Shown in pieces: positions 28,222 to 57,267 of a DNA stretch of 64,000 nt (position 1 is the stretch's first letter; every line of letters begins with the position of its first letter). Origin of the DNA: Minisyncoccota bacterium (GTDB taxonomy: Bacteria; Patescibacteriota; Minisyncoccia; Phycocordibacterales; UBA918). Below the pieces are notes generated by a model. That model saw only the letters and a program-made list of their open reading frames with translations, made no database searches and was not told the DNA's origin. The position numbers and the translations under genes were made by a program. The stretch is taken from NCBI GenBank assembly GCA_021734905.1, contig JAIPIB010000001.1:2230-66229 (forward strand). Reading direction: 5' to 3'.

Positions 28222-29673
28222 ATGGAGAAAGAAAAATTTTATCTTACGACAACTCTTCCATACGTGAATGCAAGTCCACATATTGGGTTTGCTACAGAAA
28301 TTATTCGTGCTGATGTTATAGCACGGTATCAGAAGGGGCTTGGAAAAGATATCTTTTTCAATACGGGTACTGATGAGCACGGACAAAAGATTTATGATAA
28401 AGCTACTGAGGCAGGTAAAACTCCTCAAGAATATGTCGACGGATACTCAGCTGAATTTCAAAAGATTATTCCTTTACTTGGTATTTCTTCAGATATTCAT
28501 TTTGTTCGTACCACTGATGATCATCATAAAATAGCTGCTCAGGAGATGTGGCGGAGATGTGTTGCAAACGGAGATATTTATAAAGCAAATCATCAAGTTA
28601 AATATTGTAAGGGGTGCGAGCTTGAAAAGACTGATTCAGAGCTTGAAGATGGAAAGTGCCCACTTCACACAACATATGAGATTGAAATTCGTGAAGAGGA
28701 AAATTATTTCTTCAGATTTTCAAAATATCAAGAAGCACTCCTTGAACTCTATAGGAAAAACCCAACGTTTGTTGTTCCTGAGTTCAGACTCAAAGAGATA
28801 ACATCATTTGTTGAAGGGGGCTTGCAGGACTTTAGTGTTTCACGACTCAAGTCAAAAATGTCATGGGGTATTCCAGTCCCCGATGATGAAGACCATGTGA
28901 TGTACGTATGGTTTGATGCGCTTACAAATTACATATCGACGACAGGATGGCCAGAAAAAGAAGATTTTGGCGGTTGGTGGCCGGGGATTCAATTTGCAGG
29001 GAAGGACAACCTCCGACAGCAGAGCGCGGTGTGGCAGGCCATGCTTCTTTCTGCAAAGCTCCCAACCTCAAAACAAATATACATTGGGGGATTCATTAAT
29101 AGCGGGGGACAGAAGATGAGTAAATCACTCGGAAATGTCATTAGTCCTCATGAGCTTGTAGAGCGCTATGGTACCGATGCAACCAGATATCTTCTCCTTC
29201 GACATGTGCATCCATATGAAGATACTGATATTACGTGGGAGCGTCTCGATGAGTGGTACACCGCGAATCTTGTGAATGGTCTGGGAAATCTTACATCACG
29301 AATTTTAAAAATGTCAGAGACTTATTTAGATAAAAGTCCGTATTCTCAAGGAGTTGAAGTTATGAATGCTGTTAGGAATGATACAAAAGAAAGAGAGTTT
29401 GAATACGCACTCAGATCGTTTAATTTACAAGTAGCTATTGATGAAATTTGGAGAATTGTGGGTCAAATTGATTTACAAATTACACATGAGGAACCATTTA
29501 AGGTGGTAAAAGAAGACAAGAAAAAGGCAAAGGAGATGATAGAAGTATATTTATACTACCTTGTTAGAATAGGCCTGCTTGTAGAACCATTTATGCCAGA
29601 GACCTCAAAGACAATCCTTGATGCAATCAAGACAAACAAAAAACCAGAAAATCTATTCCCACGACTTCTGTAA
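28222..29673 (+). CDS. metG: methionine--tRNA ligase (short form)
   Basis: LPYVNASPHIGFATE (HIGH), zinc-knuckle CKGCELEK..CPLH, KMSKSLGNVI. Confidence 0.85.
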   Translation: MEKEKFYLTTTLPYVNASPHIGFATEIIRADVIARYQKGLGKDIFFNTGTDEHGQKIYDKATEAGKTPQEYVDGYSAEFQKIIPLLGISSDIHFVRTTDDHHKIAAQEMWRRCVANGDIYKANHQVKYCKGCELEKTDSELEDGKCPLHTTYEIEIREEENYFFRFSKYQEALLELYRKNPTFVVPEFRLKEITSFVEGGLQDFSVSRLKSKMSWGIPVPDDEDHVMYVWFDALTNYISTTGWPEKEDFGGWWPGIQFAGKDNLRQQSAVWQAMLLSAKLPTSKQIYIGGFINSGGQKMSKSLGNVISPHELVERYGTDATRYLLLRHVHPYEDTDITWERLDEWYTANLVNGLGNLTSRILKMSETYLDKSPYSQGVEVMNAVRNDTKEREFEYALRSFNLQVAIDEIWRIVGQIDLQITHEEPFKVVKEDKKKAKEMIEVYLYYLVRIGLLVEPFMPETSKTILDAIKTNKKPENLFPRLL

Positions 29674-29725: not shown

Positions 29726-29755
29726 AAAAATAGTACGATCGATCGTACTATTTTT
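29726..29755. promoter_or_regulatory. 30-bp perfect palindrome AAAAATAGTACGATC|GATCGTACTATTTTT (overlaps 3' end of TrpR-like gene; also hairpin+T-run after metG)
   Basis: Perfect dyad seen directly; second copy at 30169-30194. Confidence 0.6.
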
Positions 29756-30164
29756 CAGTAAGGAGTTTGGTTACTTTTTTCCATCTCCCTTTGCCACGGG
29801 GTGACATACCGCAATTAATAATAATTTCTAGTGTGTTGCAGATCCGTTCATATTCAATTGTATTTTTCAGTAGTGTCTTTTCGATATAAGCGTAACGCCC
29901 ATCTCTGTAATTGTCACGGATTCTATCTGCGGTTGATGGACTGATTTTGAGTGCATTCCATATCTTGTATGAAGAATCACCACGTACACACATGAGAATC
30001 GCAGTAAGTCTTTTTGAGAGCATGATGTACTCTTCTGTCCCCAAGAGCTCGTCTAAAAATAAAGCAGTTGATGATTTGTTAAGTTTTGCCAAAGAATCAC
30101 TCAATTGGTTTGCGAGTGATTCGAGTTGTTCTTCTTTGAGTGGGGTATGTGATACGTGAGCCAT
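29748..30164 (-). CDS. TrpR/YerC-YecD-like helix-turn-helix DNA-binding protein
   Basis: Pattern ..LLGTEEYIMLSKRLTAILMCVRGDSSYKIWNALKISPSTADRIRDN.. resembles TrpR-family HTH; bracketed by identical palindromes. Confidence 0.5.
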   Translation of the reverse strand: MAHVSHTPLKEEQLESLANQLSDSLAKLNKSSTALFLDELLGTEEYIMLSKRLTAILMCVRGDSSYKIWNALKISPSTADRIRDNYRDGRYAYIEKTLLKNTIEYERICNTLEIIINCGMSPRGKGRWKKVTKLLTEK

Positions 30165-30168
30165 TGTT

Positions 30169-30194
30169 AAATAGTACGATCGATCGTACTATTT
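30169..30194. promoter_or_regulatory. 26-bp perfect palindrome AAATAGTACGATCGATCGTACTATTT, 5 bp upstream of TrpR-like start and 60 bp upstream of divergent tatD (candidate operator)
   Basis: Perfect dyad identical in core to 29726-29755. Confidence 0.6.
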
Positions 30195-30254
30195 TACGAA
30201 CATGCAGAGTGGATATTTTGTGTTGTCTGCGAAAGTGCTATATTGATGTAATTC

Positions 30255-31055
30255 ATGACTGAAAGATTTCGCTATATTGATATTCATACGCATCTCAATC
30301 TTGAGGCTTTTGATAAAGATGGAAAAGAAGTGGGTGAGCGCACTCGAGATACGGGTGTTTCATATATAAATATCGGTACAGGTCTTGAGACTAGTAAAAA
30401 AGCCGTTGTGCTCGCCCATGAAGCAAGTGGTGTATATGCAACTGTAGGAATACATCCAACGCATACGGTAGAAGAAGGTGGAGGTGAAAATTTTACATAT
30501 GACGACCTTATGATTCTTGCAGGCGACGAGAAGGTGGTAGCGATTGGTGAATGTGGGCTTGATTATTTTCGTGTATCAAAAGATGGAAAGGAGATTGAGG
30601 AAGGGGTTTTTATAAAACATATAGAGCTTGCAAATGAATTCAATAAACCGCTCATGCTCCACATTCGCTCGAGTGAGCGGAGTATGGATGCGTATGAGGA
30701 TGCTCTTGGTATTTTGAAAGCACACGCAAAAATTCTCGGTAACGTGCATTTTTTTGCAGGTACGTATGATATCGCAAAACAGTTCTGGGATATTGGTTTT
30801 AGTACTTCGTTTACCGGAGTCATTACTTTTGCAAATCAATATGATGAGGTGATAAGAAATGCGCCACTTAATATGATTCATGCAGAAACCGATGCGCCTT
30901 ATGTTGCACCTGTTCCATACAGAGGGAAGCGTAATGAACCTCTCTTTGTAAAGGAGGTGTATAGGCGCATTGCAGAAATACGGGGTGAGAATGAAGAAGA
31001 AGTTCGGAAGGTTCTCGTAGAGAACGCAAAAAAGTTATTTAATATAGAATTTTAG
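30255..31055 (+). CDS. tatD: TatD-family metal-dependent hydrolase (DNase)
   Basis: IDIHTHL.. start, conserved His/Glu/Asp pattern of TatD. Confidence 0.85.
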   Translation: MTERFRYIDIHTHLNLEAFDKDGKEVGERTRDTGVSYINIGTGLETSKKAVVLAHEASGVYATVGIHPTHTVEEGGGENFTYDDLMILAGDEKVVAIGECGLDYFRVSKDGKEIEEGVFIKHIELANEFNKPLMLHIRSSERSMDAYEDALGILKAHAKILGNVHFFAGTYDIAKQFWDIGFSTSFTGVITFANQYDEVIRNAPLNMIHAETDAPYVAPVPYRGKRNEPLFVKEVYRRIAEIRGENEEEVRKVLVENAKKLFNIEF

Positions 31056-31151: not shown

Positions 31152-31733
31152 TTAATCTTTTTCAGAGTGAAAGACGATACAGTTGCGTCCATTCTGTTTG
31201 GCGGAGTAAAGTGAAACATCTGCACGTTTGAAAAATGTCTGGGCAGTATCATCTTTCTGCAGTTCCGTGATGCCAAAACTGCAGGTCAGCTTAATGTCAC
31301 TGTCGATTTGTGTGACTCCATTTCGCAGGCGCTCAAAATAAAGTTGAGCACCTTCCGTTGTCGAATTTTTGAGAAGTATTACAAACTCCTCTCCACCCCA
31401 CCTTCCGACAAAATCTGTCTCTCGACACATGCGGTTGAGAAATGTTCCAAGGAGCTGAAGAACTCTATTGCCTGCATCATGCCCAAAGGTGTCATTGAAC
31501 TCCTTGAAGTGATCAATGTCGATAAGCGCAAGTGTAAGGGAACCCCCGTGTCTTTTCGAGTATGCAATATCACGGTGGACCCTCTCTTTGTAGGCTCTTG
31601 CGTTAGGAAGTCCGGTTAGTTCATCCGTGAATGCCCACTTCTTTGCCTGGTTATATTTTTTGTATCCACGCGCTCTCCTTCGTTTGTACTCCGCTGCACA
31701 GTTTTTGCAGGGAAAGGTGGTATGTTTACTCAC
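31152..31733 (-). CDS. stand-alone GGDEF-domain diguanylate cyclase with intact A-site (GGEEF) and I-site (RETD)
   Basis: RWGGEEFVIL preceded by RETD five residues upstream; DIDHFKEFND; short basic N-terminus with CKNC. Confidence 0.8.
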   Translation of the reverse strand: MSKHTTFPCKNCAAEYKRRRARGYKKYNQAKKWAFTDELTGLPNARAYKERVHRDIAYSKRHGGSLTLALIDIDHFKEFNDTFGHDAGNRVLQLLGTFLNRMCRETDFVGRWGGEEFVILLKNSTTEGAQLYFERLRNGVTQIDSDIKLTCSFGITELQKDDTAQTFFKRADVSLYSAKQNGRNCIVFHSEKD

Positions 31734-31802: not shown

Positions 31803-32729
31803 CTAGTCAAATAACGAAATCAAGTATGCATCGATTTCTCGTTGGCTGAGATCGTAGAAATATTTGTTGTCACGATTAAGATCTCGCGCAAGATCTGTGC
31901 CAACGAAACGCCAATGCCATGGTTCAAAAACATAGTATGTGTTGTCTTTGGGATAGGAAAGAGCGAAGCCGTATCGGTATGCGTTTTTTAGAAGCCAGGC
32001 GTACGCCTTTGTCGTCTCAAAATCGTAAAGGGTTCCGTTGATTTCAGTTGTTGTGAAATCTATCGTCGTTCCGAGTTGATGTTCCGAATACCCTTGGTCA
32101 GCCGAAAAACTGTTTGCACCTGTTCCGTACTGGACGGAGTATCCATTTTTTAGACTTCCTTGCTCGTCGAAAGAACGGTAAGCAGATGCTACAAGGAGGC
32201 TGATTCCGTCACGATCTGCTCGTTTAAGAAGATCAGTAAGGAACGGGGCTACTTTTTCATGGATAAAAAGAGATGTATTACCATCCCGACGAAATTCTTT
32301 TGGTATTTCAAGTACGACTCCTGGCATGTAATTTTCATTCAGGAAGTATATTTTGGAATATTTCTGGAGAAGTTGCGGATCGGTCTTGGAGAGCTTGTCG
32401 AGAAGTCCGACCGTCCCCGAGATACCAGTAATTTGGTCTTCAAATTCCTGATTACGCTCCTTTTCTGCTTTAAGTAATCCAAGAAGTTCGCTACCATTTT
32501 CTTCCGAAAGAGCGAATTCTTGTTTGATAATTTCAATAATTGCTTCAAGGTTTGATGCCCGTTCTTTTTCAGTAGAAAGAGTTTCTTTGGTTGCCTCGAG
32601 TTCTGTTCCTCGTGCTGTATAAGCATCTTTGAGTTTTGTGAGATTGTTATAACCGTAAAATAAAAGCCCAACTAAGATGACAATAAGTAGTAAGCTGCCA
32701 TACACATATGTCTTCGCGTGTTTCTCCAT
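31803..32729 (-). CDS. D-alanyl-D-alanine carboxypeptidase, VanY/peptidase M15 family, membrane anchored with coiled coil
   Basis: SEHQLGTTIDF and EPWHWRF zinc-ligand motifs of M15B; N-terminal TM. Confidence 0.7.
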   Translation of the reverse strand: MEKHAKTYVYGSLLLIVILVGLLFYGYNNLTKLKDAYTARGTELEATKETLSTEKERASNLEAIIEIIKQEFALSEENGSELLGLLKAEKERNQEFEDQITGISGTVGLLDKLSKTDPQLLQKYSKIYFLNENYMPGVVLEIPKEFRRDGNTSLFIHEKVAPFLTDLLKRADRDGISLLVASAYRSFDEQGSLKNGYSVQYGTGANSFSADQGYSEHQLGTTIDFTTTEINGTLYDFETTKAYAWLLKNAYRYGFALSYPKDNTYYVFEPWHWRFVGTDLARDLNRDNKYFYDLSQREIDAYLISLFD

Positions 32730-46992: not shown

Positions 46993-47472
46993 ATGCGAAT
47001 CACTGATCAATATTTTTGGAATTTTGTTTTTCTGGTTTTCTTTCTTATCTTGGTATTTATGGGAATGGTTGTTCTTGATAGTGAAGCATATAAAGTGTAT
47101 TCAGAATTAACATTTGTTGATTTTACACTCATGACACTTGCTACATTTCGAGTCATACGGCTTTTTACGCATGACAAAATCACTGCTTTTTTCAGGGAAC
47201 AATTTTATGACGCAACTGAGTCGAGAGGGAAGGTAATACTTATTAAACCAGCAAACGGGCCACGTCGTACTATTGCAGATCTTCTTTCTTGTCCATGGTG
47301 TTTTGGTGCGTGGGCAAGTGCTGTCGTTGTGTTTCTTTATCTTCTTACTCCGTATGCATTTTTCCCGATTATGTTTTTGGCGATTGCAGGAGTTGCTACT
47401 TTTATTCACCTACTCGCGAGTGTTGTCGGCTGGAAGGCAGAGCAGACAAAGATGGATGTGGAAGGGGGGTGA
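46993..47472 (+). CDS. hypothetical membrane protein (DUF1360-like, CPWCFGAW motif)
   Basis: LSCPWCFGAWASAVV motif flanked by TM helices. Confidence 0.35.
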   Translation: MRITDQYFWNFVFLVFFLILVFMGMVVLDSEAYKVYSELTFVDFTLMTLATFRVIRLFTHDKITAFFREQFYDATESRGKVILIKPANGPRRTIADLLSCPWCFGAWASAVVVFLYLLTPYAFFPIMFLAIAGVATFIHLLASVVGWKAEQTKMDVEGG

Positions 47473-47529
47473 GTAAGGCATATTCTAGAGTCGTGAGGGT
47501 TCTTTTTGCCGGAAGATACATGCCAAAGA

Positions 47530-47612
47530 AATATCGCGATTAATCGCGATATTTTTTTTAGAGGGTTATGAAAAGCAGCAAAGGCCAAAGGCCTTTGCTG
47601 CTTTTCATTTTT
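47530..47612 (+). terminator. tandem intrinsic terminators (atatcgcgat-taa-tcgcgatat+T8; aaaagcagcaaaggcc-aaa-ggcctttgctgctttt)
   Basis: two perfect hairpins each followed by T-runs. Confidence 0.75.
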
Positions 47613-52465: not shown

Positions 52466-53025
52466 ATTCCTTACAGGAATGTTAAGGGTGTATGGTGGAT
52501 GCCTAGGCTTCAAGAAGCGATGAAGGACGTGATATGGCTGCGATAAGCGTGGGGGAGATGCCAAATAATCGTTATATCCCACGATTTCCGAATGAGGAAA
52601 CTCACCTGCTTACGGCAGGTACCCTTGAATGAGGGAGCGTACCCAGGGAAGTGAAACATCACAGTACCTGGAGGAAAAGAAAGCAAAAAACGGGACTTTC
52701 TTTCTGACTTTTGAACAGCTTGCTGTTCTCCATTGAAGTCAGGAAGAAGGTTCTCGCGATTCCCTTAGTAGCGGCGAGCGAAAAGGGTAGAGCCCAAACC
52801 ATTCGTATTTATATGGATGGGGTTGTAGGGCAGTAGTGTCATTTAGTTGAGAAGAGTTACAAAATGTTGTCATAATAAAACGCGTTGGGAAGCGCGACCC
52901 AAGAAGGTAATAGTCCTGTATATGAAATTTCAACAACTCTTTTGCTACTGTTCCTGAGTAGTTCGGGACATGAATAGCCCGAATGAATCTGGGAGGACTA
53001 ACTCCTAAGGCTAAATATTCTTGAA

Positions 53026-53071
<46 letters not shown>

Positions 53072-53639
53072 GGAGAGGGGAGTGAAATAGATCTGAAACC
53101 ATACATCTACAAGGAGTCGAAGCCCTGCGGGGCGACGGCGTGCCTATTGAAGAATGAGCCGGCGAGTGTATCTTTATTCTTTGTCTAAGTGGTAAACCCA
53201 CGGAGGCGTAGTGAAAGCGAGCGTGAATAGCGCGAATATAGAGTAAGGATACGACCCGAAGCGGGATGAGCTTGCCATGTGCAGGGTGAAGCGAAGGTAA
53301 AACTTCGTGGAGGCCCGAACCGGTTGGCCGTTCAAAACCATCGGATGACATGTGGTAGGGAGTGAAAAGCTAATCGAATTCCGTAATAGCTGGTTCTCTC
53401 CGAAACAGCTTTAGGGTTGGCGTCGTGTGTTCCTCCTGGGGGTAGAGCTCTGGAAGGTCTAAATAGGGAGAAATCTCGTTAGACCTATCAAACTACGAAT
53501 ACCAGGTAGTCACAGCACGGCAGTTAGACTACGGGGGAGAAGCTCCGTTGGTCGAAAGGGAAACAGCCCAGATCGCCAGTTAAGGTCCCAAAATATATGC
53601 TCAGTGCAACTTGAGGAGGTGAGGATTCATAAACAGTCA

Positions 53640-53671
<32 letters not shown>

Positions 53672-54514
53672 GAAAGCGTAACAGCTCACTGATCGAGAGT
53701 CCTTGCGCCGAAGATGATCGGGGCTCAAGCATATTACCGAAACTGCGGATGTCACTTTTCTTCGGAAAAGTGGCGTGGTAGGAGAGCGTTCTGTTCTGCA
53801 ATGAAGCCAAGGTGTAAACCACGGTGGAGCGTACAGAAGTGAGAATGCCGGCACAAGTAACCGCAAGACGGGTGAGAACCCCGTCCGCCGAAATACCGAG
53901 GTTTCCTTCGCTATGCTGATCAGCGAAGGGTTAGTCGGTCCTAAGCCGATCCCGAATGGGGGAGGCGATGGATAGCAGGTTAATATTCCTGCACACTGTT
54001 GCGTTGCGATGGAGGGACGGAGGGTTGTACCCAAAGCATCTTATTGGATTGGTGCTGGAACTATGAGGAGGTGTGGTAGGCAAATCCGCCACACAATACT
54101 CCGAGTAGGGTCTGAACGTAAGGCTTCGGCCGAGCGAATGAGGGGAGCACGCTTCCTAGAAAAACTTCTAAGCATAAACGTAACGGTTCCGTACCGCAAA
54201 CCGACACAGGTGGTAGGGTCGAGAAGACCAAGGCGAACGAGTGAGGGGTCCTTAAGGAACTCGGCAAAAAAGCGGCCGTAACTTCGGGATAAGGCCTGCC
54301 TTTGCCCCTTCGGGGGTTAAAGGCCGCAGCGAAAGATTTCCTGGCAACTGTTTAACAAAAACACAGCTCCCTGCGAACACGTAAGTGGATGTATAGGGGG
54401 TGACGCCTGACCAATGCCGGAAGGTTAAATATGGGGGGTCTTATGTATTTATATGTAAGGCTGGACTATATAAGCCCCGGTCAATGTCAGCGATAACTAT
54501 AATCGTTCTAAGGT

Positions 54515-54712
54515 TCAGCAATTTTTCTTCGGAAAAATTGCTGATAGGACTGGAACGATTATGGGTTAAACATATAACGCCGAACAAGCTACCTTGCATC
54601 CAGAAATGTATGCATAGTCCAAATTGCAACCAACAAGAGACCAAATGTTGCACATCTTAACTATCGAAAGATAAAAGATGAAGATAGAGTCCTTCTGCAA
54701 TAGGAATAGAAG
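54515..54712 (+). other. 198-nt intervening sequence in 23S domain IV between AAGGU and AGCG (E. coli ~L1917-1923 region); degenerate group-I-like mini-intron?
   Basis: Exon sequence contiguous in E. coli; insert preceded by U, ends in G; contains gatgaagatagagtcc nearly identical to S-element segment of the downstream intron; starts with perfect UUCG-type hairpin cagcaattttt-cttcgg-aaaaattgctg. Confidence 0.55.
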
Positions 54713-55279
54713 AGCGCAATTCCTTGTCGGGTAAGTTCCGACGTGCACGAAAGGCGTAATGACTGGGAAACTGTCTCAAGGACCTGCTCGGTGAAAATAC
54801 AATGGGGGTGAAGATGCCCCCTACCTGCAGTTAGACGAAAAGACCCCAGGAGCTTTACTGTAGCTTCGTATTGGGGCTGTTGAATTAATGCGTAGCATAG
54901 AAGGGAGACTTTGAAGCGAGCTTTCGGGTTTCGTGGAGTCGCCAGTGAAATACCTTTCTTTAATTTGGCAGTTCCTAACCTCTTAGAAAAAATCTAAGAG
55001 AGACAGTGCGTGGCAGGCAGTTTTAGTGGGGCGCTACCCTCCTAAAAAGTAACGGAGGGGTCTCAAGGTTGGCTAGGCGCGAATGGAAACCGTGCCGATA
55101 GTGTAATGGCATAAGCCAGCTTGACTGTAAGGCGTCAGTGCCGAACAGATGCGAAAGCAGAGCATAGTGAACCGACGGTACGCTTTAGACGCGGCCGGAG
55201 ATTATCTGACAAAAGTTACCCTGGGGATAACAGGCTAGTCGTGCCCAAGCGTCCATAGCGACGGCACGGTTCGGCACCT

Positions 55280-55646
55280 TAACTTATTTATGGTATTTCA
55301 CTCAGCAATGGGTGTTTATATCAAGTTATAAATACATCGGGGTGCCTAGAGTAGCAATACTCTATAAAAATAAATTGGCTATATGCTGGAACTCCTGAGT
55401 CAAAATTAAGCATACAAGGCCCAAACAGTAATTTGAAAAAATAAGCTGTGTGGCTTGAAAACATTGTATGTTCAGGACAATCAGCAGGGAAGACTTCTAA
55501 GTTATTTAAAATAATATGAAGAACCCTCAGAGACTACACGCCAATCTCCAACTCTAAGTAGAGCTGGATGAAGATATAGTCCGATCCTCGTAGTAATACG
55601 AGTGTATAGTAAAAGTAGATAGAATTTTTACTATACAAAACGACAG
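55280..55646 (+). other. group I self-splicing intron (367 nt, no ORF) in 23S domain V at E. coli L2500-equivalent site
   Basis: Interrupts GGCACCU|CGAUGUCGGCUC; 5' exon ends in U, intron ends in G; candidate IGS gggtgt (55310-55315) pairs with exon gcaccu giving U-G at splice site; conserved Q aatcagcagg (55479-55488), R cctcagagactacacg (55525-55540), S aagatatagtcc (55571-55582). Confidence 0.85.
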
Positions 55647-55676
55647 CGATGTCGGCTCAACTTATCCTGGGGCTGG

Positions 55677-55712
<36 letters not shown>

Positions 55713-55717
55713 AAGTT

Positions 55718-55755
<38 letters not shown>

Positions 55756-56160
55756 CTCTATCTACTGCAGGCGTCGATTCTTGAAGAGATTTGTCCCTAG
55801 TACGAGAGGACCGGGATGAACTGACCTCTGGTCTATCTGCTGTCACGCCAGTGGCACCGCAGAGTAGCTATGTTGGGAATGGATAACTGCTGAAAGCATC
55901 TAAGCAGGAAGCCAACTCTAAGATTAGGAATCATTAAGTCCCCTGAGAGATGATCAGGTTGATAGGCACTAGGTGTAAGCGCAGCAATGTGTGGAGCCGA
56001 GGTGTACTAATTAGACGTAATTCCTGTAGGGAATGCTGTACATCGCCCCAAATGAACAAAATTAACGCACTGTTTTTAATTTTGGACATTTAGGAGTGAA
56101 AAGCTATACAATTTTTTGGAGTATTGTTTTATGTTTGTCGTCGTTTTAGAATATGTGATT

Positions 56161-56261: not shown

Positions 56262-56730
56262 ATTGACAATTGAATACTGTAATGTGGTTTTTAAACCATA
56301 AAGATCAGAGACGAATCAAAATTTCCGCTATCGGTCGCCAACCTCCCAAGTTTCAGGCATATCCGATACGTGTGTGTTTACATTTTGATTGACTTGCTCA
56401 GGTAGGCATTCCATGGCGGCTTTTGCCTCCTAACCTGCCGCCCGCGATTCTTCGCTACCTTGCGCAGTCATGCAAGTTGGGAGCTTTCTCCCCGTCTCTC
56501 CCTCGTTCTTTGTCTGTCGGTGGTGTATAGAAATTGTACGATTTTTCTGCCTTTCTTCATTCTTTTGGGATGTAGCTCAGCTAGAGGGTTATTGCAACTT
56601 CTTAGGTAGAGTGCCAATTGTTCCCGGTTGTCAACATCCGGTAAAAAGATTGGAGGTCGCTGGTTCGAATCCAGCCATCCCGACCATTGCTATTTCTTTG
56701 GAAATAGCATCACATTACAGTATTCAATAG
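56262..56730 (+). other. inverted repeat attgaatactgtaatgtg (56270-56287) / cacattacagtattcaat (56711-56728) bracketing the tRNA: candidate processing stem
   Basis: 18-bp perfect complementarity seen in sequence. Confidence 0.5.
56566..56686 (+). tRNA. aberrant over-long tRNA gene (121 nt) with canonical acceptor/T-arm/encoded CCA but ~22-nt insert in D-loop and ~23-nt insert in anticodon loop; isotype unresolved
   Basis: 5' tgggatg-ta-gctc-ag.. and 3' ..gaggtc-gctgg-ttcgaat-ccagc-catcccg-a-cca; anticodon stem ccaat/attgg encloses 30 nt instead of 7. Confidence 0.5.

Positions 56731-57147: not shown

Positions 57148-57267
<120 letters not shown>

Follow-up and report, generated by a model that had tools for sequence, protein, structure and literature searches.

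We propose that a small gene in a 64,000-nucleotide (nt) stretch of Minisyncoccota DNA (assembly GCA_021734905.1, contig JAIPIB010000001.1; this whole stretch is the window below) probably encodes a dimeric repressor of the TrpR/HisR superfamily that represses its own synthesis. The gene, here called REG, lies between tatD and metG and is bracketed by two copies of one perfect palindrome, the first just before its start codon and the second across its stop codon. In this reading, which rests on sequence comparison, the upstream dyad would be the site of autorepression and the downstream dyad a second operator. The gene and its putative operators are positioned as follows.

29748..30164, minus strand: REG, the regulator gene, encoding 138 amino acids (aa) with a predicted TrpR/HisR-type fold, an additional helix and a tail (GMSPRGKGRWKK) that is conserved, basic and rich in Gly.
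30169..30194: putative upstream operator, a perfect 26-bp dyad whose 20-bp core occupies 30172-30191 and whose centre lies 17.5 nt 5' of the A of the ATG.
29726..29755: putative downstream operator, a perfect 30-bp dyad of the form A5-core-T5, with its 20-bp core at 29731-29750, between the convergent REG and metG genes.

The initial annotation, made from the letters of the window alone, had described identical perfect palindromes flanking a TrpR-like regulator, and both are present, 26 bp long at 30169-30194 and 30 bp long at 29726-29755. The sequence they share, AAATAGTACGATCGATCGTACTATTT, occurs exactly twice in 64 kb (29728-29753 and 30169-30194), with no third site in the window even when three mismatches are allowed, and 100 dinucleotide-preserving shuffles of the window gave a mean of 0 and a maximum of 0 copies. 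A degenerate version of the core, TAGTACGATNNATCGTACTA, matches these two window sites and no others. The dyads were detected with a custom script; a repeat search at default settings did not list them. REG (29748-30164, minus strand, 138 aa) is the sole open reading frame (ORF) between the two dyads, and its stop codon TAG (29750-29748, minus strand) supplies the outermost three bases of the lower dyad's 20-bp core. Some distances differ from those first given. The gap between the upper dyad and the REG ATG (30164-30162) is 4 nt (30165-30168) rather than 5 bp, the T5 said to follow the lower dyad (29751-29755) belongs to the 30-bp dyad, forming its outer part, and metG, said to abut the lower dyad, ends at 29673, 52 nt before it. 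The spacing of about 60 bp between the upper dyad and tatD is accurate (60 nt to the tatD ATG at 30255). Rfam reports no RNA family at the regulator locus, and GC skew gives no origin or terminus signal there.

The same arrangement recurs in related genomes. The five closest homologues (~53% identity) and a Candidatus Elulimicrobium genome all carry both dyads, one ending 1-6 nt before the ATG and the other on or just after the stop codon. In these close relatives the operator consensus is TAGTACGAT-YR-ATCGTACTA, in which each 9-bp half-site is invariant and the central two bases vary (CG, TA, TG, CA), symmetry being optional at that position. Invariant half-sites around a free, non-palindromic centre are a signature of dimer recognition. 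A scan of metagenome contigs supplied 59 further REG loci, down to 26% identity. Counting as a dyad any loopless perfect palindrome with an arm of at least 9, and considering the 48 loci that have 70 nt or more on each side (55% to 26% identity), we find a dyad at the start in 40 loci, at the stop (no more than 25 nt from the stop codon) in 30, and at both ends in 28. The two copies have 12-28 nt in common in all but one of these 28 doubly bracketed loci, and the background is 7 such dyads in 201.6 kb of more distant flank.

The core itself differs from lineage to lineage and falls into roughly 15 half-site classes, with examples including TAGTACGGTTAACCGTACTA, TAGTACAGTTAACTGTACTA (locus L029), TCATACGATTAATCGTATGA, CTTACGGTTAACCGTAAG, CCTTTCGGTTAACCGAAAGG, CCTTTCAGTTAACTGAAAGG, CCAATCGATTGG and CTAATATACTAGTATATTAG. 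Divergence between half-sites correlates with divergence between recognition helices (residues 75-87) at r = 0.72, and at a partial r of 0.48 once the rest of the protein is controlled for, a relationship that is supportive rather than a formal test because the loci are related. Varying as they do in step with the protein, the palindromes are most likely where the repressor itself binds. Taken with a bracket kept down to 26% identity and an upstream copy that lies over the promoter, this co-variation lends strong support, at the level of sequence, to the initial suggestion of operators and autoregulation.

The position of the upstream dyad relative to candidate promoter elements indicates how repression would operate. 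Two hexamers are placed as follows.

30171..30176, minus strand: -10-like hexamer TACTAT, within the gene-proximal arm of the operator and 6 nt before the ATG.
30195..30200, minus strand: -35-like hexamer TTCGTA, read from the sequence and weak, abutting the operator 18 nt upstream of TACTAT.

Across the aligned loci, TAnnnT stands exactly at -12 to -7 from the ATG in 26 of 48 (as TACTAT, TAATAT, TATGAT, TAAGAT, TATACT and others) and in 9 or fewer at any other offset outside the operator; in 14 of the 48, the hexamer is preceded by TTGnnn or TTGACA at a distance of 16-18 bp. The dyad is centred at -17.5 in 16 of 29 bracketed loci, the window included. Before the REG ATG in the aligned loci we see no Shine-Dalgarno motif, nor is there room for one, and such motifs are rare elsewhere in the window, with an SD-like sequence at just 5 of the 40 ORFs of at least 150 aa. 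This rarity agrees with the report that many Parcubacteria are without an anti-SD motif (PMC9297842). Many large window ORFs have a -10-like hexamer (TATACT, TACAAT, TATAAT) 6-11 nt before the ATG, and the window genome seems to produce mostly leaderless or very-short-leader mRNAs. For REG, this geometry leads us to infer a transcription start at or beside the ATG and a leaderless mRNA. In three loci (L036, L037 and L039) the upstream palindrome is 38-40 bp long and includes the start codon (CATTGC...GCAATG), so that the -35-like TTGC box is mirrored between the -10 hexamer and the ATG.

In 26 of the 29 bracketed loci the downstream dyad is centred 9.5-26 nt beyond the stop codon's first base (overall the values run from -12.5 to 33.5, with a median of 14.5, and the window has 9.5), and it tracks the stop codon of REG rather than the end of metG, as is evident because one or two small genes can intervene. 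Many downstream copies lie between convergent genes and carry A-run/T-run flanks. As RNA, the window copy folds at -14 to -15 kcal/mol on either strand, its stem being AT-rich and having no designed loop; for the dyads together the values are -13 to -15 kcal/mol (z -2.6 to -5.5), and a consensus terminator scan called 0 terminators at the window dyads. That the downstream copy has the same lineage-specific core as the upstream one implies that it is either read by the same protein or homogenised with its partner, and, given its location between convergent genes, it probably serves as a second operator and, in addition, as a block to transcription or a terminator. We therefore regard the downstream copy as a likely second operator doubling as a barrier or bidirectional terminator between REG and metG. 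The initial annotation had left a choice between operators and terminators, and the second term suits only the downstream copy, and that in part (A5/T5 flanks, convergent genes); the upstream copy sits between divergent genes, where a terminator would have no role.

The protein is assigned through its family. Searched exhaustively with a profile, the family has 1333 representatives (50% clusters) at E<=1e-3, of which almost all have 130-145 aa. Members with a named source belong to Parcubacteria/Paceibacteria, Niyogibacteria, Taylorbacteria and the 'Patescibacteria group', with database labels of hypothetical, 'YerC', 'Trp repressor' or 'Trp family regulator'. The Pfam Trp_repressor model (PF01371) matches 116 of 135 homologues (best E 8.9e-14). 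TIGR02531 (YerC) reaches E<=0.01 in 50 of the 135, below its cut-off, and TIGR01321 (TrpR) matches 26 weakly and likewise below cut-off. Searched against the PDB, the family profile finds the YerC/HisR-type structures 3kor, 3g1c and 3frw at E values of 2e-7 to 4e-6. An AlphaFold2 (AF2) model of REG is all-helical, with a predicted local distance difference test (pLDDT) score of 88 and helices at residues 11-26, 30-40, 43-60, 65-72, 76-87, 92-100 and 102-116. The top 40 Foldseek matches to it in the PDB are all TrpR or TrpR-like (target-normalised TM score ~0.7, probability up to 1.0), with E values of only 0.04-3. The model conforms to the all-helical TrpR fold, whose helix-turn-helix is built from helices D and E. 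Alignment to Escherichia coli TrpR by hhalign (E 3e-5, probability 73%) pairs R52 with Arg54, T78 with Thr81, R81 with Arg84 and Y66 with Arg69. Positions at which TrpR contacts DNA are retained at T78, R81 and Y66; HisR likewise has Tyr at the Arg69 position (PMC9413887). The equivalent of TrpR Thr44 is present in the family consensus, but is Gly42 in the window protein. Outside the TrpR core there are one additional helix and a conserved, low-confidence tail, GMPxxGxxRW; the protein has no catalytic domain, containing neither an HUH motif nor a DDE domain. Because of the family profile matches, the predicted fold and the residue alignment, REG is assigned to the TrpR superfamily, outside the characterised TrpR and HisR families. 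The label 'TrpR-like' thus fits the family (116 of 135 with PF01371, the 3kor/3g1c/3frw matches and the predicted fold) better than the window protein taken by itself, for which a weak HTH_23 match is the only counterpart. Our literature search found no study of this Patescibacteria family; the relevant work concerns comparative analyses of HisR and TrpR and the loss of the anti-SD in Parcubacteria.

Sequence and comparison give directly the sites and how widely they are conserved, the co-variation of sites and protein, the geometry of the promoter and the predicted fold. From these we infer binding, repression, a leaderless start and a role for the downstream copy, and suggest the following model. 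The operator of the dimeric helix-turn-helix (HTH) repressor REG would be the 20-bp dyad defined by the close relatives. Its upstream copy would fill the spacer and the -10 element of REG's own promoter, so that bound repressor would exclude RNA polymerase, giving negative autoregulation. The downstream copy would most likely act as a protein-reinforced barrier and bidirectional terminator, ending the REG transcript and preventing read-through of metG from crossing REG in the antisense direction and reaching tatD. It could also anchor a repression loop of ~440 bp (the two centres are 432-486 bp apart across loci) or, in a variant of the model, a roadblock at this site could truncate REG's own transcript. 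REG is likely to work with a small-molecule co-repressor, since it retains residues equivalent to TrpR Arg54 and Arg84, and the family consensus, unlike the window protein with its Gly42, retains the one equivalent to Thr44.

Several observations weigh against this model. First, the window protein gives no PF01371 match at E<=0.1 in Pfam, matching HTH_23 (E 0.0023) and HTH_29 weakly, and in NCBIfam it yields weak sub-threshold matches to IS630 and ISNCY models and reaches neither TIGR01321 nor TIGR02531. Second, the -35 element in the window is poor (TTCGTA with an 18-nt spacer), and a consensus promoter scan of the window did not report a REG promoter. Third, the loci are phylogenetically related, and neither the bracket counts nor the correlations are independent observations. 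Fourth, the dyad arms are perfectly complementary well past the shared core, reaching 20-25 bp, with bases that differ between the two copies of one locus. Such extended complementarity goes beyond what recognition by a protein alone would explain, and hints at a hairpin, cruciform or symmetric-promoter constraint. Finally, the same exact 20-mer, TAGTACGATCGATCGTACTA, occurs at 8 or more loci of the Paceibacterota metagenome-assembled genome (MAG) JALHRC01 (L001-L003, L005, L007 and L011-L013) with no regulator within 8 kb. The initial annotation had named copies at many unrelated, regulator-free loci as a result that would speak for a generic terminator; this pattern is found in that one other MAG and not in the window.

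These dispersed copies and their surroundings have further features. The 20-mer is also found at a few loci in three other MAGs, again with no regulator within 8 kb. Most of its copies follow the 3' end of a gene or separate two convergent genes, their flanks have nothing in common beyond the dyad, and no regulator paralogue is found in the dispersed-site loci or in the window. They resemble a spread of the kind seen with repetitive extragenic palindromic (REP) sequences and bacterial interspersed mosaic elements (BIMEs), or an enlarged 'barrier' regulon. Within the 10-kb loci around REG, by comparison, additional operator copies occur only within a few hundred bp of the gene, several of them before tatD, and viral contigs contain neither an operator copy nor a REG homologue. 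In L005, L007 and L011 the 20-mer is 20-40 bp from a dyad of a second operator class (CCTTCGGTTAACCGAAGG-like), in L007 it also stands beside a GC-rich loopless terminator, and L001 and L012 have additional unrelated loopless dyads. At another locus (L050, 1202-1251) a 50-bp perfect palindrome, TTAGTACGTTCTCTAGTACGTTCCTAGGAACGTACTAGAGAACGTACTAA, which holds repeated TAGTACG units of another operator class, lies just upstream of that locus's regulator operator. The window has a second loopless perfect 26-bp dyad of its own at 47529-47554, AAATATCGCGATTAATCGCGATATTT, with an operator-like frame (AAATA..CGAT-TA-ATCG..TATTT) in which 3 of 9 half-site bases differ. It follows the ORF at 46993-47472 and is itself closely followed by an ordinary terminator hairpin (47568-47608), upstream of rplJ, and no related locus that we fetched contains a match to it.

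An extension of the repressor model would give the downstream site a larger part. REG would clamp both ends of its own leaderless gene; polymerase stalled by the sequence-specific 3' roadblock before the stop codon would yield non-stop transcripts, which would add a second, post-initiation layer of autoregulation, and the same clamp would control whether transcription of metG reads through into tatD. In some lineages (JALHRC01) the operator would have spread, REP-like, to many gene ends, and the protein there would be a genome-wide, sequence-specific termination or insulation factor in bacteria whose regulatory repertoires are minimal. We consider this fuller scheme unlikely.

A different explanation is that the dyads function only as nucleic-acid hairpins, whether as transcript-end or mRNA-stabilising stem-loops or as terminators insulating a small gene, and that REG does not bind them. 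The arms, extended up to 20-25 bp with compensatory, copy-specific bases, speak for it; the flanking A- and T-runs of many downstream copies, their convergent neighbours, the RNA folding energies and the JALHRC01 copies at gene 3' ends all agree with it. However, the dyads are loopless and symmetric through their centre, which an RNA hairpin does not need, whereas ordinary terminators in the window have loops of 3-5 nt and GC-rich stems, and the consensus scan places no terminator at either dyad. Moreover, the upstream copy lies between divergent genes and would go untranscribed if the mRNA is leaderless, and a core that is the same in both copies, yet changes between lineages with the recognition helix, needs a common reader. 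The hairpin explanation is accordingly improbable.

Still less probable is that the palindrome-gene-palindrome unit is a mobile or REP-like element, or the descendant of one, whose HTH protein is an end-binding factor comparable to the REP-associated tyrosine transposases (RAYTs) or a transposase HTH. Such an origin would explain why the gene is exactly delimited by two repeat copies, and it would accommodate both the weak sub-threshold matches to the IS630 transposase N-terminal HTH (in the window protein and in 59 of 135 members) and the dispersal of the 20-mer to at least 8 JALHRC01 loci, where it is sometimes clustered with other palindromes, like BIMEs. By contrast, the order tatD-REG-metG-glyS is found in ~35 loci spanning 55% to 27% identity, REG is without the HUH or DDE signature of a catalytic domain, the 64-kb window has just two copies, viral contigs have neither copies nor homologues, and the flanks of dispersed copies share nothing beyond the dyad. 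As an insertion sequence or mobile cassette in the strict sense, the unit was rejected on its synteny down to 27% identity, the missing catalytic domain and the lack of viral-contig relatives. Finally, the dyads might be symmetric bidirectional core promoters with mirrored -35 and -10 elements and no dedicated repressor, the downstream copy being an antisense promoter, for which a -10-like hexamer on both strands of the dyad, the upstream copy's divergent intergenic setting and the long palindromes of L036, L037 and L039, with mirrored TTGC.../...GCAA boxes and even CAT/ATG, could be cited, but tatD has its own extended -10 near its ATG in the window and most loci, no gene start faces the downstream copy, and a lineage-specific core that tracks a recognition helix is unlike a general promoter element, leaving this the most remote of the explanations.

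The neighbours of REG bear on what else a repressor might control. The relevant features of the window are these.

30255..31055, plus strand: tatD, encoding a TatD-family metal-dependent hydrolase/DNase (Pfam TatD_DNase, E 5e-69), divergent from REG.
30236-30244: extended -10 of tatD, TGCTATATT, 10 nt before the tatD ATG.
28222..29673, plus strand: metG, encoding methionyl-tRNA synthetase (Pfam tRNA-synt_1g, E 3.7e-89), convergent with REG.

The full order conserved in the ~35 loci (55% to 27% REG identity) is (VanY-GGDEF-)tatD, divergent, then REG, 0-2 small genes, convergent metG and glyS. The initial annotation had asked whether orthologous loci hold the regulator between metG and tatD, and they do; synteny of this depth speaks against a recent cassette insertion and contradicts the alternative, also raised there, of a small inserted cassette. 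In the window, two minus-strand genes adjoin tatD, one for a GGDEF diguanylate cyclase (31152-31733) and one for a VanY-type peptidase (31803-32729). A VanY gene is beside tatD in many related loci (among those noted, L014, L017, L026, L029 and L034), and GGDEF only in L017-L019; the recurrence of VanY indicates a conserved block that extends beyond the regulator unit.

Control of a flanking gene had also been suggested, and here the evidence comes from other lineages. Where the spacer between REG and tatD is long, in L040, L044, L045, L047 and L059, tatD has an additional operator copy of its own, 15-60 bp before its start, which suggests that tatD is a target in those five lineages. In the window the shared operator ends 44 bp upstream of the extended -10 of tatD. 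We regard tatD as a possible second target of REG. No trp or his genes are found at the window locus. Distant members of the family, which have MPRxSK N-termini, occur in other contexts and retain the upstream dyad more often than the downstream one. In this distant clade (L065, L069, L078 and L079) the regulator is often beside a gene for a class II (ProRS-like) aminoacyl-tRNA synthetase (aaRS), while the main clade is beside metG and glyS, and there may be a recurrent association of the regulator with aaRS genes. The neighbours in the distant clade are heterogeneous, and no consistent functional partner emerged there from the PHP, DHH and class II aaRS neighbours that we looked at.

There are several implications if the repressor model is right. 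Patescibacteria, members of the candidate phyla radiation (CPR), have tiny genomes, few regulators and almost no genetics, and with 1333 representatives at 50% clustering the REG family appears to be among their commonest transcription factors. Because the operator would be readable from the two flanks of the gene in every genome, the family could offer dozens of natural protein-operator pairs, from which a recognition code for the TrpR fold and orthogonal repressor/operator parts could be derived. The loci also give a clear view of what looks like a leaderless, SD-less promoter architecture in Parcubacteria, and they point to TatD, a widely conserved but poorly understood hydrolase, as a candidate regulated gene. 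An operator on the stop codon would be an unusual autoregulatory design.

Elsewhere in the window, a 23S rRNA gene, 3559 nt long against a model length of 2925, contains a group I intron and is followed by a 5S rRNA gene; features of this region lie at 52472-56030, 55328-55603, 56566-56683 and 57155-57262. A 118-nt Rfam tRNA match that ARAGORN does not call may be an interrupted or unusual tRNA.

REG has clear parallels with characterised members of its superfamily. Proteins of the TrpR superfamily bind, as dimers and with a small-molecule co-repressor, dyad-symmetric operators of 18-20 bp, and the conserved 20-bp dyad beside REG, which co-varies with the recognition helix, is consistent with such binding. 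The operators of TrpR and HisR are palindromes of 20 bp, and autoregulation is found for about half of hisR genes (PMC9413887). With E. coli TrpR, REG has in common its predicted fold (AF2 model and Foldseek), an approximately 20-bp palindromic, here putative, operator over the regulator's own promoter and the equivalents of Arg54 and Arg84, that of Thr44 being found only in the family consensus. The TrpR motif is TGTAcTnGTnnACnAgTACA (PMC9413887); GTAC and, in sister lineages, AGTTAACT recur in several REG-family cores, and the L029 core is TAGTACAGTTAACTGTACTA. By contrast, E. coli TrpR has 108 aa to REG's 138, which include the extra helix and the GMPxxGxxRW tail, and REG differs in its stop-codon second operator, its apparently leaderless promoter and the lack of trp genes nearby. 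We rejected an E. coli-type TrpR (TIGR01321), as the window protein does not match that model, 26 of 135 members match it weakly and the locus has no trp genes. HisR (YerC/YecD, TIGR02531), the histidine repressor of Firmicutes, provides the closest solved relatives by profile (3g1c, 3kor and 3frw), and resembles REG in its Tyr where TrpR has Arg69, in dyad operators of 20 bp whose consensus is lineage-specific and in frequent autoregulation (PMC9413887). In contrast, the HisR consensus, cacTTTAnnnnnnTAAAgtg, is unrelated to the REG operator, and HisR proteins have fewer than 100 aa, a single upstream site only and a regulon of his biosynthesis and transport, for which there are no genes here. 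Identity with HisR/YerC-YecD was likewise rejected: the window protein has no NCBIfam match, the operator is unrelated and the neighbours are tatD, metG and glyS rather than his genes.

Auxiliary operators are familiar from the gal and lac systems. The 3' end of lacI holds the lac O3 site, with a few hundred bp between it and the promoter-proximal operator, and both a roadblock and looping have been proposed as modes of autoregulation there. REG resembles this arrangement in having a putative operator at the 3' end of the repressor's own gene. The differences are that the protein belongs to another family, that the 3' site of REG is identical to its 5' site and overlaps the stop codon, and that both sites are those of the regulator gene itself and not of an operon downstream. 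A REPtron (RAYT-REP) likewise places a small gene between two palindrome copies that can disperse to intergenic regions and gene 3' ends, as in JALHRC01, whereas REG has an HTH repressor fold rather than an HUH/Y1 transposase, two copies in 64 kb and deep synteny. We rejected this identification as well, given the TrpR fold, the absence of an HUH motif, the two window copies and a dispersal seen only in another MAG. These comparisons suggest that the REG family is a Patescibacteria-wide variant of the autoregulated TrpR/HisR repressor, and that what would set it apart is the placement of two identical operators on the start and the stop of a leaderless gene.

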